A stretch of DNA of 64,000 bases from an uncultured candidatus Porisulfidus sp. (lineage in GTDB: Bacteria; Pseudomonadota; Gammaproteobacteria; Poriferisulfidales; Poriferisulfidaceae), in assembly GCA_965116525.1 (NCBI GenBank), contig OZ220694.1, positions 407,490 to 471,489 of the forward strand, read 5' to 3'. Position numbers and translations under genes: made by a program. Position 1 is the first letter of the stretch. The number at the start of each line of letters is the position of its first letter. This document shows positions 21,510 through 28,574 of this stretch, piece after piece. The notes beneath the pieces were generated by a model. That model made no database searches. It was given only the letters and a program-made list of their open reading frames with translations, and was not told the origin of the DNA.

Positions 21510-22460
21510 ATGCTCCTGACCTACCTGATCGCCGTCGTCATCGGATTCGTGGTCCTGGCCTGGAGCGCCGACCGGCTGGTCGAGGGCTCGTCCTCCCTGG
21601 CCCGCCAGCTGAACGTCTCGGCCTTCACCATCGGCGTGGTGATCCTGGGATTCGGCACCAGTCTCCCGGAGCTTTTGGTCTCCGCGACGGCTGCCGCCCG
21701 CGGCAGCGGCGGCATCGCGATCGGCAACGCCTTCGGCTCCAACATCGCCAACATCGCGCTGATCCTGGGCGTCTCGGCGCTGATCCTCCCGCTCGCCGCC
21801 GACCGGACCCTGGTGCGACGCGACATCCCCCTGATTTTGCTCGGCACGGCGGGCGTGTTCCTGGTCCTCTCGGATCTGGTGCTGGAACGCTGGGAAGGCA
21901 TCCTCCTGATGCTCGCCCTGGCCGGGATCATCACCCTGATCGTGCGCAGCGGACAGGCGGCCGCCCCGATTACCAGCCGACAGGCCGAACACACCACCCT
22001 GAACGCCCTGGCCCTGGTCCTGCTCGGGCTGGTCCTCCTGCTTGGCAGCGCCTGGGCACTGGTCTGGGCCTCCGTCGGGCTGGCCCGGATGCTGGAAGTG
22101 GACGAACTGCTGGTCGGCCTGACCCTGGTCGCCATCGGCACATCTCTGCCGGAACTCGCCGCATCTCTGGCATCGCTGAAACGCGCTGAGGGCAGCGGAC
22201 TCATCCTCGGCAATGTGGTCGGCTCCAACCTGTTCAACACCCTCGGCGTGGTCGGGGTTCCCGCCGCCATCCGCCCATTCTCGGTGTCGCCGATGCTGTG
22301 GTACGACGGCCTGATCATGCTGGGACTCACCGCCCTGCTCGGCTTCCTCCTGTTCCGCCGGGGGAGCTTCCGGCTCACCCGGCCCGGCGCAATCCTGCTA
22401 TTGTTGTGCTATATAGGCTACTTGGGCTGGAACGCAGACCGCATGATGGTGCCCGTATGA
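21510..22460 (+). CDS. yrbG: Calcium/sodium antiporter (YrbG family)
   Basis: Two alpha repeats: GFGTSLPEL...GNAFGSNIAN and AIGTSLPEL...GNVVGSNLFN. Confidence 0.9.
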   Translation: MLLTYLIAVVIGFVVLAWSADRLVEGSSSLARQLNVSAFTIGVVILGFGTSLPELLVSATAAARGSGGIAIGNAFGSNIANIALILGVSALILPLAADRTLVRRDIPLILLGTAGVFLVLSDLVLERWEGILLMLALAGIITLIVRSGQAAAPITSRQAEHTTLNALALVLLGLVLLLGSAWALVWASVGLARMLEVDELLVGLTLVAIGTSLPELAASLASLKRAEGSGLILGNVVGSNLFNTLGVVGVPAAIRPFSVSPMLWYDGLIMLGLTALLGFLLFRRGSFRLTRPGAILLLLCYIGYLGWNADRMMVPV

Positions 22461-23437
22461 CCGACTCTGACCACACTTCGGACATTCTGGAAGTCGCCCG
22501 CGACGTGCTGCGGCAGGAAGCGGACACGGTCCGCGGCCTGGCGGACCATACCGGCGAGAGCTTCGTCGAGTGCTGCCAGTTGCTGAGCAAGTGCACCGGG
22601 CACATCATCGTCATCGGCATGGGCAAGTCCGGCCACATCGGGCAGAAGATCGCCGCCACCTTCGCCAGCACCGGCAGCCCCTCGTTCTTCGTCCACCCGG
22701 CCGAAGCCAACCACGGCGACCTTGGCATGATCACCCGCAACGACGTCGTGCTGACCCTGTCCAACTCCGGCGAGACCGAAGAGCTGCTGAACCTGCTGCC
22801 GCTGGTGCGCCAGATCGGCGCCACCATCATCGCGCTGACCGGCCAGCCGGAATCCTCGCTGGCCCGCAAGGCCGACCTGCACCTGGAGATCCCGGTGGAG
22901 CGCGAGGCCTGCCCGCTCAACCTCGCCCCCACCTCCAGCACCACCGCCACGCTCGCCATGGGCGATGCGCTCGCCGTCGCCCTGATGCATGTCCACGGCT
23001 TCAAGCCGGAGGACTTCGCGAGCACCCACCCGGGCGGCAGCCTGGGCCGGCAGCTGCTGACCACGGTCCGCGACGTGATGCGCGACGGCAAGAACATCCC
23101 GAAAGTCACCGTCGGCACCCTGCTGCGGGACGCCCTGCCCGAAATCTCCGAGAAAGGGCTCGGCATGACGACCGTGCTGGATGCGGACGGACAGGTCGTC
23201 GGGGTCTTCACCGACGGCGACCTGCGCCGCTGCCTGGCGGACGAGGTGGACGTCCACGTCACGGCGGTGGACCAGGTGATGACGCGGGACTTCCAGACTG
23301 CGGCACCGGACGAACTCGCCCGGGACGTGCTGCACCGGATGCGGGACCGCCGCTACAACGCCACCCCGGTCATGCAGGACGGCCAACTGGTCGGCGTGCT
23401 CAACATGCACGACCTGATCGCGGCCGGGCTTCGATGA
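22457..23437 (+). CDS. kdsD: Arabinose-5-phosphate isomerase
   Basis: GMGKSGHIG.K, HPAEA.HGDLG, EACPLNLAPT.STT, HPGG.LG and a CBS pair; ATGA overlap with yrbG. Confidence 0.95.
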   Translation: MTDSDHTSDILEVARDVLRQEADTVRGLADHTGESFVECCQLLSKCTGHIIVIGMGKSGHIGQKIAATFASTGSPSFFVHPAEANHGDLGMITRNDVVLTLSNSGETEELLNLLPLVRQIGATIIALTGQPESSLARKADLHLEIPVEREACPLNLAPTSSTTATLAMGDALAVALMHVHGFKPEDFASTHPGGSLGRQLLTTVRDVMRDGKNIPKVTVGTLLRDALPEISEKGLGMTTVLDADGQVVGVFTDGDLRRCLADEVDVHVTAVDQVMTRDFQTAAPDELARDVLHRMRDRRYNATPVMQDGQLVGVLNMHDLIAAGLR

Positions 23438-23904
23438 ACCCCGAGGACGTCAAGCTCCTGATCCTGGACGTCGACGGCGTCCTGACCGACGGTCACCTGT
23501 ACCTTTCCGAGGACGGCACCGAAACCAAGTGCTTCCATGTGCACGACGGCCAGGGACTGGTCCTGCTGTACGACGTCAACGTGCAGATCGCGGTGATCAG
23601 CGCACGGAAGAGCGATGCGACCCGGCAGCGGTTGCAGGAACTGGAAATCGGCGAGGTCATCCTCGGCTGCGACGACAAGTACGCCGAGGCCTGCGCCGTC
23701 ATCGAACGAGTGGGCTGTACCTGGGCGGAAGTCGTCTGCATCGGCGACGACGTCACCGACATCCCCCTGCTTGAGGCCGCCGGCATGGGTGTGGCGGTGG
23801 CGGATGCCCGCCCGCCAGTCCGTGAGGCCGCGGACTGGGTCACCCCGAGCCCGGGCGGCCGCGGCGCGGTGCGCGATGTGTGCGACTGGATCCTCCAGAG
23901 ATGA
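23434..23904 (+). CDS. kdsC: KDO 8-phosphate phosphatase
   Basis: LLILDVDGVLTDG, F.V.DG.G, IGDDVTD and GGRGAVRDVCD. Confidence 0.93.
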   Translation: MNPEDVKLLILDVDGVLTDGHLYLSEDGTETKCFHVHDGQGLVLLYDVNVQIAVISARKSDATRQRLQELEIGEVILGCDDKYAEACAVIERVGCTWAEVVCIGDDVTDIPLLEAAGMGVAVADARPPVREAADWVTPSPGGRGAVRDVCDWILQR

Positions 23905-24944
23905 AGAAATTCCGCCTGCTGCTCATCCTGCTGCTGGCGGCCGCCCTCGCCGTCGGCTTGTGGGCCCTGGCCCGCATGCCCGCCCCACAGGAAGCCGCCC
24001 TGACTCCCGACCGGGAAACCCCCGAAAACAGCTACATGCAAGTCCGCCACCGGATCCGGGACCTGCAGGGGGAACTGCTCTACGAAGTCGCCGCCGAGCG
24101 GCTGGACCAGTACCCCGACAGCCAGGTCCTGCGCCTGGACCTGCCCCGGCTGCACTGGCTCGACCCCGCGTACGAGAATTCCGCGGCCTCGGCCCGACAC
24201 GGAGAGATCCGGGAGTTCCAGGTCGTCCTGAACGGAGACGTGGAACTCCAGCTGGACCCGCCGGAGCACTCCCCCACCCTGATGCACGGCGAATCGCTGA
24301 CCCTGGATTCGGAACACGAACGGGTCTACAGCGACCAGGCCGTGGTGGTCAGCCAGTCCCATGCGGTGATGCGCGGCGTCGGGCTGGACTACCGGCTGGA
24401 CGGCTCGGGCGGCCAGCTCGAACGGGACGTGAAAGTCCGCCAGTTCCCGCCGGACGCGCAACAGCCGACGCAAGCGTTGCTGCAAAAGGTCCTGGAGGAA
24501 GCCTTCGGTGTCGCACACGCGCAGGAACCCCCGGAGGACACGCTCGACCTGAGCGCGGACCGGATGGAATGGGATTCTCAGAAGGAAGTCAGCGTCTACC
24601 GCGGAAACGTGCGCGCCAAGCAGGGCGAGATGATCCTACTCGCCGAGCAACTCACGGTGATCTCCGACGATGATCGCGTGCAGGCCCTGCACGCCGAGGG
24701 CAATGCCCGCTGGACCCAGATCCTAGACTCCGGCAAACCGCTGCGCGCGAGTGCCGGCAGTATCCTCTACCAGATCCGGCAGCGCAAGGCGATCATGAAG
24801 AAGAACGTCAACCTGCGCGTCGACGCGCACCAGTTCACAGGGGAAGAAGTCATCTACCTGATCGACGAGGAACGCGTCGAGACCCCCGTCACCCGGAAGC
24901 CCTCCGAACGGGTCCGGATTCGGCTGAAGACCGACTCCGATTAA
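23901..24944 (+). CDS. lptC-lptA: In-frame LptC-LptA fusion (N-terminal TM anchor, LptC beta-jellyroll, linker, LptA/OstA domain)
   Basis: A single ORF fills the lptC and lptA slots between kdsC and lptB. The second half (LSADRMEWD...[10 protein letters not shown]...L.AE.L.V...AEGNA) is LptA-like. Confidence 0.75.
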
Positions 24945-25666
24945 TGGCCACGCTCGAAGCCCAGGGACTGTGCAAGTCCTACCGCGACCGGCAGGTCGTC
25001 TCGGAGGTCACGCTGCGTGCGAACGACCACGAAGTGGTCGGGCTGCTCGGCCCGAACGGCGCGGGCAAGACCACCTGCTTCTACATGATCACGGGGCTGG
25101 TGCCCTGCGACCAAGGCCAGATCCTGCTGGACGGCCAGGACATCACCGGGCTGTCCATGAGCCGCCGCTCCCGCGCCGGCATCGGCTACCTGCCCCAGGA
25201 ACCCTCCGTGTTCCGCCGCCTGACGGTGGAGGAAAATGTCCTGGGCGTGCTCGAGCAACTGCCCCTGTCGAAGACGGAACAAAAGGAACGCCTGGAGCTC
25301 CTGCTTGAAGAGTTCTCCATCGACGGGATTCGGGACAGCCGCGGATTTTCATTGTCGGGCGGCGAACGGCGGCGGGTCGAGATCGCCCGCGCGCTGGCCA
25401 TGGACCCCGCCTTCATCCTGCTAGACGAACCGTTCGCCGGTATCGATCCCCTGCACGTGGCCGACATCAAGTCGATCATCCAGCAACTCCAGGAACGCGG
25501 CATCGGCATCATCATCACCGACCACAACGTGCGCGAGACCCTCAGCATCTGCCGCCGCGCCTACATCCTCTCGGAAGGATGCACCATCGCCGAGGGCGAG
25601 CCGGGAGAGATCCTGGAAAATCCGCAGGTCCGCGAAACCTACCTGGGCGCCGACTTCCGGCTCTGA
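24944..25666 (+). CDS. lptB: LPS export ABC transporter ATPase
   Basis: [54 protein letters not shown] and [10 protein letters not shown]. Confidence 0.97.
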
Positions 25667-25837: not shown

Positions 25838-26890
25838 TCAATAGCTGTGTTCTTTTCCCGACTTCTCGGAGTGGCCCTCATGCCCTTTCCCGTGCTTATG
25901 CCTGCCCTTGCGGCATTTCTTGGGCTTGGGATCACTTTCGGACACGACGCCATCTTCATTCGTGTCGTGGCGCGAAAATATCTTCTGCCCTGAAACCTGG
26001 TACTCCTCGAAGCTCATCTCGCCATTCCCGTCCTTGTCCAGCATCCCGAAGCGCGCCTTCGCCCGCTTCAGTTTTTTCTTCCGGGCCTTCTCGGCCGCCT
26101 CGTCCAAACGGTTACCGAACTCCAGCACATACTCCTCCGGGTTCAGCGTCCCGTCCCCGTTCTCGTCCGTCCTGTCAAAGTCGGCGCGGCGCTGGGCGCT
26201 GAATTCCTCGTGCGTGATCGCACCGTCCTTATCGGTATCGTACTTCCGCATCATCCCTTTCTTGCTGTGAGTGGTCGGCATGTGAATGACCCGCTTCGCA
26301 TGCTTTTTCCACATGCCCTTGTGCTTACCGTGCTTGTGGCCCTTGCCGTGCTCGTGATCGTGGCCGGCACCTGCCTTGTCTCCCTTCCCTTTGCCTTTGT
26401 AGCCCTTGCACTTATGTTTGCAACTGTGCTTGGGGCGCGGGTCGTCCGCGTTGATGACGCCATTTTCGTCCCCGTCAAACCGCTTGAAACTGCGTTCGCC
26501 GGACGCTTCGTATTCCTCCCACTCTATCTGTTCGCTGTCGTCCTTGTCCAGGGCGTCAAAGCGCCGGTGGGTCCGCTTGATGTGTCCCTTGCGCTCCTTT
26601 TTGATTTTCTTGTCCAGGCGGTTGGCGCACCCCTGAACGTACTCGTCGACATCGACCAGGCCATTGCCGTTTTCATCAGGCAGGTCGTAGCGAGCCCGGC
26701 GCGCCTGCTCGAATTCATCCGCGGTCACCTGGGCATCATCGTTCTGGTCATACCGCTCGATAAATGAACTCTGGCCATGGTGCCCCTTATGGTGTCTCTC
26801 CTTGTGTCCTCCATAGTCTCCGGCAACTGCGAGACTTGCAGCGGCAGTCAACATGACAGCCGACACTAAAGCAAAACATTTCGATTTCAT
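25838..26890 (-). CDS. Secreted EF-hand protein (8 loops in two duplicated halves) with His/Lys-rich segments
   Basis: Signal peptide; loops DQNDDAQVTADE, DENGNGLVDVDE, DKDDSEQIEWEE, DGDENGVINADD, DTDKDGAITHEE, DENGDGTLNPEE, DKDGNGEMSFEE and DTNEDGVVSESD. Confidence 0.88.
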   Translation of the reverse strand: MKSKCFALVSAVMLTAAASLAVAGDYGGHKERHHKGHHGQSSFIERYDQNDDAQVTADEFEQARRARYDLPDENGNGLVDVDEYVQGCANRLDKKIKKERKGHIKRTHRRFDALDKDDSEQIEWEEYEASGERSFKRFDGDENGVINADDPRPKHSCKHKCKGYKGKGKGDKAGAGHDHEHGKGHKHGKHKGMWKKHAKRVIHMPTTHSKKGMMRKYDTDKDGAITHEEFSAQRRADFDRTDENGDGTLNPEEYVLEFGNRLDEAAEKARKKKLKRAKARFGMLDKDGNGEMSFEEYQVSGQKIFSRHDTNEDGVVSESDPKPKKCRKGRHKHGKGHEGHSEKSGKEHSY

Positions 26891-27052: not shown

Positions 27053-28513
27053 TCAACAACTCCGGTTGCACTTCCCGCCGGCATCCTTGAGAACTTGGGA
27101 CCAATCCGACCCCTTATTTTCCGAGTGATGGTCCAAGGGGGTCTCCCCTCCCTTGTCTTCCGCATTCACATCCGCGCCAGCGTCCAGTAGTGCCTGCGCG
27201 ATTTCCGGATTCGGGTTGCTCTCCCCCGCCAAATGCAGAGGTGTTGCCCCCTCGGTATTCCTCGCCCCCACTTCTGCGCCTGCATCTAACAGCAGCTTGG
27301 CAACCATCAGGTTTTCATTGCGCCCCACTGCAAAATGCAGAGGGGTCATTCCACGATCGGTCTTCGCATTCACCGCCGCGCCCGCTTCCAGCAGCGCCCG
27401 CACAACTGCCAGATTCCGCTGGTGTGCCTCCTCAGTCTCGTCGGCACCCATAAGACGCACAACTTCTAGAGCCCTCCTACTGTAGCCAGCCGCAACGTGC
27501 AAAGGCGTCGTTCCCTCTCTATTCATTGCGTCAATCGCCGCGCCTGCACCCAGCAACGCCTGCACAACCGCCAAATTCTGGTTGTATTCCGCCGCAAAAT
27601 GCAAGGGCGTGTCACCAAGTTCGGTTGTCGCATTGACATCCATGCCAGCGTCGATCAACACCTGCGCAACCGCCGGATTCTGGTTGCCCCCTGCCGCCTG
27701 GTGCAACAGTGTTTGATCCTGGTGATCCCTTGATTCGGCCACCGCGCCTGCATCCAACAGCATCTGCACGACTGCCGGGTTTTCGTTGCTTTCGACCGCA
27801 AAATGCAAGGGGGTTCTGCCAGAACGGTCTTTCGCGCCTACGTTGACCCTGGCATCTAAAAATGCCTGGATAACTTCAGGAGGCTGGTTACCGGCCGCAA
27901 GATGGAAAGACGTCGTGCCCACCATACCTTCCTCGTTCACCTCTGCGCCAGCATCTACCAATGCCCGTACAACCATTGGATTCGAATTGTTCAATACCGC
28001 TAAATGCAAAGGAGTCACCTTGGGTTCGCCTTCCGGATTCACTTCGGCACCGGCATCCAAAAGCATCTGGACAATTGCGACGTGCGGGTTGAGAGCCGCA
28101 AGGTGCAAGGGTGTCTGGCTTCCCATAACCGTTGCATTCACGTCAGCACCCGCATCCAGCAAAACCCGAACAATCACCGGATCCTCACTGATTTTTGCCG
28201 CAAGGTGCAGAGGCATCAGGGTATCCTCCCAAGCCCTCTCAATTTCGTCGTTGGCAGCGTCCAACTCGGCTGAAGTAAGAGGCCGGTCTCGCACACGTTC
28301 GTTCACTTGCTCAATCATTTGCTGTAGAAGCATCAGGCTAACCTCGGTTTTCGCATTCACATCCACGCCGGCGCTCAGCAAGCCTTTTACTTCGGAGAGA
28401 TCTCCTGCCCTGATCGCCTTGTGCAAGGGAGACTCGGTCAGCACTGGCCGCGCAACCGCCAGCGTTAGGCCGATCACGACCAAAGTGAATGCGGCTACCC
28501 TTCCTGCTCTCAT
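27053..28513 (-). CDS. Secreted ankyrin-repeat protein (about 12 repeats)
   Basis: Repeated TPLH.A...N....V..LLDAGA.VNA; AGGGGAG Shine-Dalgarno before the ATG at 28513; signal peptide; ends DAGGKCNRSC. Confidence 0.92.
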   Translation of the reverse strand: MRAGRVAAFTLVVIGLTLAVARPVLTESPLHKAIRAGDLSEVKGLLSAGVDVNAKTEVSLMLLQQMIEQVNERVRDRPLTSAELDAANDEIERAWEDTLMPLHLAAKISEDPVIVRVLLDAGADVNATVMGSQTPLHLAALNPHVAIVQMLLDAGAEVNPEGEPKVTPLHLAVLNNSNPMVVRALVDAGAEVNEEGMVGTTSFHLAAGNQPPEVIQAFLDARVNVGAKDRSGRTPLHFAVESNENPAVVQMLLDAGAVAESRDHQDQTLLHQAAGGNQNPAVAQVLIDAGMDVNATTELGDTPLHFAAEYNQNLAVVQALLGAGAAIDAMNREGTTPLHVAAGYSRRALEVVRLMGADETEEAHQRNLAVVRALLEAGAAVNAKTDRGMTPLHFAVGRNENLMVAKLLLDAGAEVGARNTEGATPLHLAGESNPNPEIAQALLDAGADVNAEDKGGETPLDHHSENKGSDWSQVLKDAGGKCNRSC

Positions 28514-28574
28514 GTCGACTCCCCTACGAACCGGGAACATCGTAGAACAAAATAATCACGATGCCTCTACCCGG

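Follow-up and report, generated by a model that had tools for sequence, protein, structure and literature searches.

The locus described here lies in a window of 64 000 nucleotides, the whole stretch of DNA that was analysed. On its forward strand (21510–25666), genes encoding a Na/Ca exchanger, KdsD, KdsC, a fused LptC–LptA protein (lptCA) and LptB are chained by ATGA or TAATG stop/start overlaps, which suggests tight translational coupling. The order kdsD-kdsC-fusion-lptB places the fused gene where lptC is expected, between kdsC and lptA or lptB. The ORF and its translation confirm the observation, made previously in a sequence-only reading of this DNA, that a single frame of 347 aa starting at ATG 23901 occupies the interval between kdsC and lptB. 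The A-H-A motif, which that reading placed at 24513–24521, corresponds exactly to codons 205–207. The features are as follows.

22457..23437, forward strand: kdsD, with SIS and CBS domains; ATGA overlap with kdsC
23434..23904, forward strand: kdsC, HAD phosphatase; its stop overlaps the fusion start (ATGA)
23901..24944, forward strand: lptC–lptA fusion gene, 347 aa, from the ORF and translation; ATG at 23901, TAA at 24942–24944 (stop codon included)
23904..23972, forward strand: N-terminal signal-anchor, a predicted transmembrane helix (aa 2–24), from the AlphaFold2 helix and a best 15-residue Kyte–Doolittle mean of 3.06
24027..24452, forward strand: LptC β-jellyroll (aa 43–184), ending in VKVRQFPP, from PF06835, TIGR04409, AlphaFold2 and Foldseek
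24453..24521, forward strand: 23 aa linker, putatively the former LptA signal peptide minus its n-region; position and length match free LptA signal peptides
24471..24500, forward strand: predicted amphipathic helix within the linker (aa 191–200), from AlphaFold2, conservation and hydrophobic moment
24513..24521, forward strand: A-H-A motif (aa 205–207), a c-region of signal peptidase I type, from conservation and synonymous codon variation
24522..24941, forward strand: mature LptA-type β-jellyroll and C-terminal tail (aa 208–347), from TIGR03002, PF03968 and Foldseek
24944..25666, forward strand: lptB, ABC ATPase; its start overlaps the fusion stop (TAATG)

From 25667 onwards, the genes that usually follow lptB in the operon (rpoN-hpf-ptsN and others) are missing. 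There is no match to the sigma-54 DNA-binding domain (PF04552) in the whole 1.57 Mb genome, and rpoN has therefore seemingly been lost. Just downstream of lptB is a convergent pair of genes on the reverse strand. The first (25838–26890) encodes a secreted-looking, Lys/His-rich protein of 350 aa with several EF-hands, and the second (27053–28540) an ankyrin-repeat protein of 495 aa whose N-terminal part includes a hydrophobic segment. Both belong to the eukaryote-like type that is typical of sponge symbionts.

Domain identity and predicted structure

Each half of the protein matches the profile expected of it above the curated cut-off, as the sequence-only reading had anticipated. The Pfam LptC model (PF06835) matches about aa 10–178 with 82.3 bits (cut-off 21), and the NCBIfam LptC equivalog (TIGR04409) scores 92.8 bits (cut-off 38). 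The Pfam LptD_N/LptA model (PF03968) matches aa 218–324 with 74.2 bits (cut-off 20.4). The NCBIfam LptA equivalog (TIGR03002, cut-off 71.7) gives 86.6 bits for the whole protein and 88.8 bits for the C-terminal half alone. Against NF008143, the model for LptA of the E. coli type, the highest score is 31.6 bits, far under its cut-off of 234; such a low score is expected given the distant species.

An AlphaFold2 model, built on an alignment of 31 sequences (mean pLDDT 84.3, pTM 0.75), contains a helix at aa 2–24, a jellyroll at 43–181, a second helix at 191–200, a low-confidence stretch at 203–209 and a second jellyroll at 215–327. The strands of the LptC part (aa 43–181) have a pLDDT of about 90 or more. 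Together with the hydrophobicity of the anchor, this agrees with the arrangement given previously, a transmembrane anchor followed by an LptC-like domain. The layout was unchanged in a second model, made for a relative with 46 % identity (pTM 0.79). Judged by pTM, the two domains may be oriented head to tail.

Foldseek matched the LptA half to 2r19_A (TM 0.79, rmsd 1.3 Å over 115 columns) and to 4uu4, an LptH structure (TM 0.75), as befits the OstA-type β-jellyroll fold of LptA. The LptC half matched 3my2 (TM 0.82) and also 6mit_C. A sequence search of the PDB matched solely LptA and LptH chains. The C-terminal half departs from LptA in not being a separate secreted protein with its own Sec signal peptide, for it has no start codon and the preceding linker is weakly hydrophobic.

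Occurrence of the fusion in the family

The host genome is a single contig of 97.8 % completeness. Profile searches found no second LptC and no free LptA in it, and the sole other match to PF03968 is weak and lies inside the 772 aa frame of LptD. LptB, LptF, LptG, LptD, LptE and the signal peptidase LepB are all encoded, and LptD carries an N-terminal OstA domain. The relatives bear the name Ca. Porisulfidus, a sponge-associated sulfur oxidiser. The family comprises a single genus, and each of its 16 species has this frame without interruption, at 42–91 % identity; several of these genomes are closed or in a single contig. Free LptA is absent from all 16; the only other OstA-type match in each is in a long frame of LptD size (at least 750 aa in nearly all). 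In addition, 45 metagenomic protein clusters contain both domains within 343–351 aa, one of them labelled 'LptA' at NCBI. Both the natural in-frame fusion and the absence of a separate lptA, claimed from the window alone, thus hold in the relatives. The gene is a genuine lptC–lptA fusion, fixed family-wide, and is the organism's sole LptC and sole LptA.

That the single ORF results from a stop codon lost or a frameshift introduced in sequencing or assembly, or from a recent accident of the pseudogene kind, the cell in fact having separate LptC and LptA proteins, is untenable given the conservation of the frame across species, several of them with single-contig assemblies. It is further contradicted by the metagenomic clusters with both domains in one chain, by purifying selection over the full length and by the fact that no internal start codon is followed by a signal peptide that could be used. 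Separate translation of LptA from within the gene was rejected, as neither the linker nor the stretch leading into it contains a Met. GTG and TTG codons near the linker were likewise rejected as starts; they have no plausible Shine–Dalgarno sequence, and the 'signal' that would follow is non-hydrophobic.

The C-terminal half might instead have another role, for example as an extension or docking module of LptC, with LptA function supplied by an unrecognised protein. In favour of such a role is the low score against NF008143, although a score of this kind is expected of a distant species. However, the half alone exceeds the cut-off of the LptA equivalog, it matches the LptA fold closely (rmsd 1.3 Å), and, besides that of LptD, there is no LptA-type domain in any of the 16 genomes. 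This explanation is very improbable.

In full-text searches of the literature on the Lpt system, no account of a natural LptC–LptA fusion was found; the only fusion found there was engineered.

The linker and its origin

In the 31-sequence alignment L194 is invariant and P189, T190, L193, L198, F202, A205 and H206 are at least 90 % conserved; A207 does not vary in this alignment or among the 16 species. Among all members, the most distant at 33 % identity, Ala occupies position −1 without exception; Ala or Val is found at −3, and His, Tyr or Arg at −2. A helix breaker (Gly, Ser or Pro) occurs at −5/−4, and +1 is never Pro. The resulting pattern, [G/S/P/D]-x-A-[H/Y/R]-A followed by [Q/A/E/R], has the residues recognized by signal peptidase I, for which the criteria used were a small side chain at both −3 and −1, a breaker of the helix between −6 and −4, and any residue except Pro at +1. 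The Ala codons of the motif vary synonymously across the 16 species, which indicates selection on the protein; constraint at the DNA level, such as an internal promoter or RNA structure, was rejected on the same ground. The helix is predicted with a pLDDT of about 66 (aa 191–200) in the window protein and about 87 (aa 191–201) in the relative with 46 % identity. The AxA stretch has a pLDDT below 50 in both models (aa 205–209 in the relative), and the motif is therefore predicted to sit in a flexible stretch.

Median pairwise dN/dS values for the parts of the protein were as follows.

Anchor plus stalk: 0.74
LptC: 0.30
Helix plus AxA (aa 191–207): 0.27
LptA: 0.25

For residues 187–214 of the linker region the value was 0.35. 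The cleavage-type site had been described as vestigial in the sequence-only reading. This cannot be maintained, since the helix and AxA are constrained like the folded domains, A207 is invariant and the codons vary synonymously: the linker is under selection and is not vestigial.

The linker lacks a hydrophobic core. Its best 10-residue Kyte–Doolittle mean is 0.8 in the window protein, within a range of 0.66–1.74, compared with 2.64±0.38 (minimum 1.53) for real N-terminal signals, represented by 115 N-termini of free LptA and LptC. The segment has a mean hydrophobicity of 0.1–0.25 and a hydrophobic moment of 0.4–0.7, whereas the corresponding values for the true anchor are 0.75–0.97 and below 0.25. 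Sites cut by signal peptidase I follow an h-region that spans the membrane with its N-terminus inside and its C-terminus outside. The amphipathic linker offers no such region and, because it comes after a periplasmic domain, its N-terminus would lie outside. In a crude heuristic screen of the host genome, AxA was the commonest ending among predicted signal peptides (62 of 203). GVAHA, the ending of the linker, also closes two of the signal peptides predicted by this screen, in proteins of 441 and 253 aa.

Sister families of the same order indicate how the fusion may have arisen. Their lptC and lptA genes are separate but overlap, lptA beginning in a different frame 11–30 nt ahead of the lptC stop; free LptC ends in VRVxHxP and a stop, and free LptA has a normal signal peptide of 26–30 aa. 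In the fusion, the LptC part ends in VKVRQFPP, which aligns with the stop of free LptC. What follows AxA aligns with free LptA from its mature N-terminus (e.g. SDAQQPILLESDSAKWD), and the first LptA strand lies at the same distance from AxA as in free LptA. Given the overlap in the sister families and these aligned ends, a small indel would explain the fusion. Such an indel within the overlap may have put lptA in frame with lptC, and the LptA signal peptide, minus its first residues, would then have become the 23 aa linker. No sequence likeness was found between the linker and the LptA signal peptides of the sister families; signal peptides share no sequence, and homology of the linker is thus judged on position and length. 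The earlier suggestion that the linker is a relic of the LptA signal peptide is supported, in that a segment of 23 residues ending in AxA lies at the right position and leads into an aligned mature LptA N-terminus. The linker is probably the former LptA signal peptide.

Natural LptC–LptA fusions also occur outside this family. When the whole library was searched with HMMER, a second fusion clade of seven clusters (P0138 and P0195–P0200; 334–358 aa) emerged, as well as P0122, P0101 and P0074. The second clade is found at L028 6001–7077 and L029 1535–2539, where the locus reads kdsB-kdsC-lptCA-lptB-rpoN-hpf-ptsN-hprK-rapZ. This clade and P0122 resemble the window protein in domain order, locus and length (330–358 aa), but at 17–23 % identity and with seamless joints of 2–10 residues, without signal relic, helix or AxA. 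They appear to be independent events. What is unusual in the window protein is the apparent re-use of a signal peptide with a preserved cleavage motif. P0074 (393 aa), a metagenomic protein, is a single LptC–LptA ORF with a seemingly intact internal signal peptide starting from Met (MAVSLKKTLLATAALAACMEGFAQ); it represents a fusion of very recent date or else two genes wrongly called as one. P0147 (350 aa), also metagenomic, was rejected as a further fusion, since it consists of a signal peptide and tandem LptA–LptA domains; a tandem LptA is another route to a fixed number of bridge units in one chain.

For an impression of frequency in the class, 400 genomes were searched with PF06835, and from the 150 listed matches those with open frames exceeding 330 aa were retrieved. 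There was no fusion among the six such frames from these 150 matches; all six represent separate, overlapping lptC and lptA genes, with a long open frame upstream. This sample gives a rough upper impression of the rarity of the fusion.

Fate of the chain and comparison with known systems

On balance, the evidence inclines towards an uncleaved, membrane-tethered bridge containing one LptA. The covalently fixed bridge proposed in the sequence-only reading may be right, although the intact c-region is compatible with cleavage. The LptC signal-anchor would carry the whole chain across the inner membrane, as its topology implies. The former h-region may have lost its hydrophobicity and become a conserved amphipathic helix; with hydrophobicity lost, it would not act as a stop-transfer sequence. 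The two jellyrolls would then sit head to tail on LptB2FG, as in the LptC–LptA complex, and LPS would be passed on to the N-terminal jellyroll of LptD, a step suggested by homology and by the complete set of Lpt genes. An E. coli LptC–LptA fusion made by engineering associates stably with LptB2FG and, in vitro, transfers LPS to LptD (PMC12065857), and monomeric LptA supports growth of E. coli (PMC5575297). These results and the seamless natural fusions indicate that an uncut chain is viable. Two points argue against it. With one LptA, the bridge would span an estimated 16 nm or so, less than the 21 nm quoted for the periplasm, although the latter is an E. coli figure and may not be that of the host (PMC5575297). 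Furthermore, a mere tether gives no obvious reason for keeping a canonical c-region where the chain is predicted to be flexible.

The second point leads to the main alternative, which is possible although rather unlikely: that the fused protein is a precursor that leaves the cytoplasm by means of the LptC anchor and is then cut after A205-H206-A207 by a protease on the periplasmic face, most likely signal peptidase I (LepB), releasing ordinary soluble LptA. The amphipathic helix, lying on the membrane surface, would present the site, and LptC would be left with a 23-residue tail; partial cutting might yield both tethered and free LptA. A precursor would account for the exact adherence to the −3/−1 rule, with a breaker at −5/−4 and no Pro at +1, and for selection acting on the protein, seen in the synonymous variation of the Ala codons and the dN/dS of 0.27 for the segment. 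The site is conserved yet flexible, which fits a recognition motif. GVAHA terminates two predicted genuine signal peptides of the host, LepB is encoded, and AxA lies as far from the LptA strand as it does in free LptA. On the other hand, the linker is entered after a periplasmic domain with its N-terminus outside, unlike substrates of signal peptidase I, and it is far less hydrophobic than real signals. Moreover, such a site is absent from the other natural fusions, which must function without cutting. Slightly less probable still is the specific proposal that the former signal peptide has become an internal processing element, in which the helix presents A-x-A to signal peptidase I and so frees LptA. 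If true, this would be a signal-peptidase cut of a periplasmic polyprotein without a membrane-spanning h-region, and strict 1 : 1 production of LptC and LptA from one gene.

To return to the tethered bridge, throughout the family each LptC is accompanied by a single LptA domain, and genes for free LptA are absent, so that only a cut chain could give rise to LptA oligomers. The balance of probability is that the chain stays intact and provides one covalently tethered LptA per bridge, which could not be extended by free LptA oligomers. In E. coli, the number of LptA molecules per bridge and the need for LptA oligomers are still debated. An intact chain, if real, would be natural proof that a bridge with one LptA (LptFG, LptC, LptA, LptD) suffices for life. 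It would also offer a stable single-chain LptC–LptA for structural study of the hand-over between the two domains, which is the target site of thanatin-type peptides. A cut chain would reveal an unusual mode of signal-peptidase processing. On either reading, the locus illustrates fusion of overlapping genes and the apparent re-use, instead of loss, of a signal peptide.

A polyprotein cut at an internal signal peptide is known from Bradyrhizobium, in the FbcH cytochrome b–c1 precursor. There, as in the window protein, two components of one complex are joined in one chain with a signal-peptidase site between them, and FbcH is thus a model for the precursor alternative. The internal signal of FbcH, however, is a true membrane-spanning segment reached from the cytoplasmic side, whereas the linker follows a periplasmic domain and is not hydrophobic.

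The closest counterparts are LptC (YrbK) and LptA (YhbN) of E. coli, encoded by separate genes in the same locus, kdsD-kdsC-lptC-lptA-lptB. Both β-jellyroll folds, the N-terminal anchor of LptC and the partners LptB2FG and LptDE are shared, and in E. coli the C-terminal edge of LptC likewise adjoins the N-terminal edge of LptA. The window protein differs in being one polypeptide, in which LptA has neither its own start codon nor a working signal peptide, and in its conserved 23 aa linker, probably derived from a signal. The engineered E. coli fusion is likewise a covalent LptC–LptA chain, but is man-made and has been used only in vitro (PMC12065857). The fusion described here, in contrast, is natural, occurs throughout a family, is the sole source of LptA and has a linker that appears to derive from a signal peptide.
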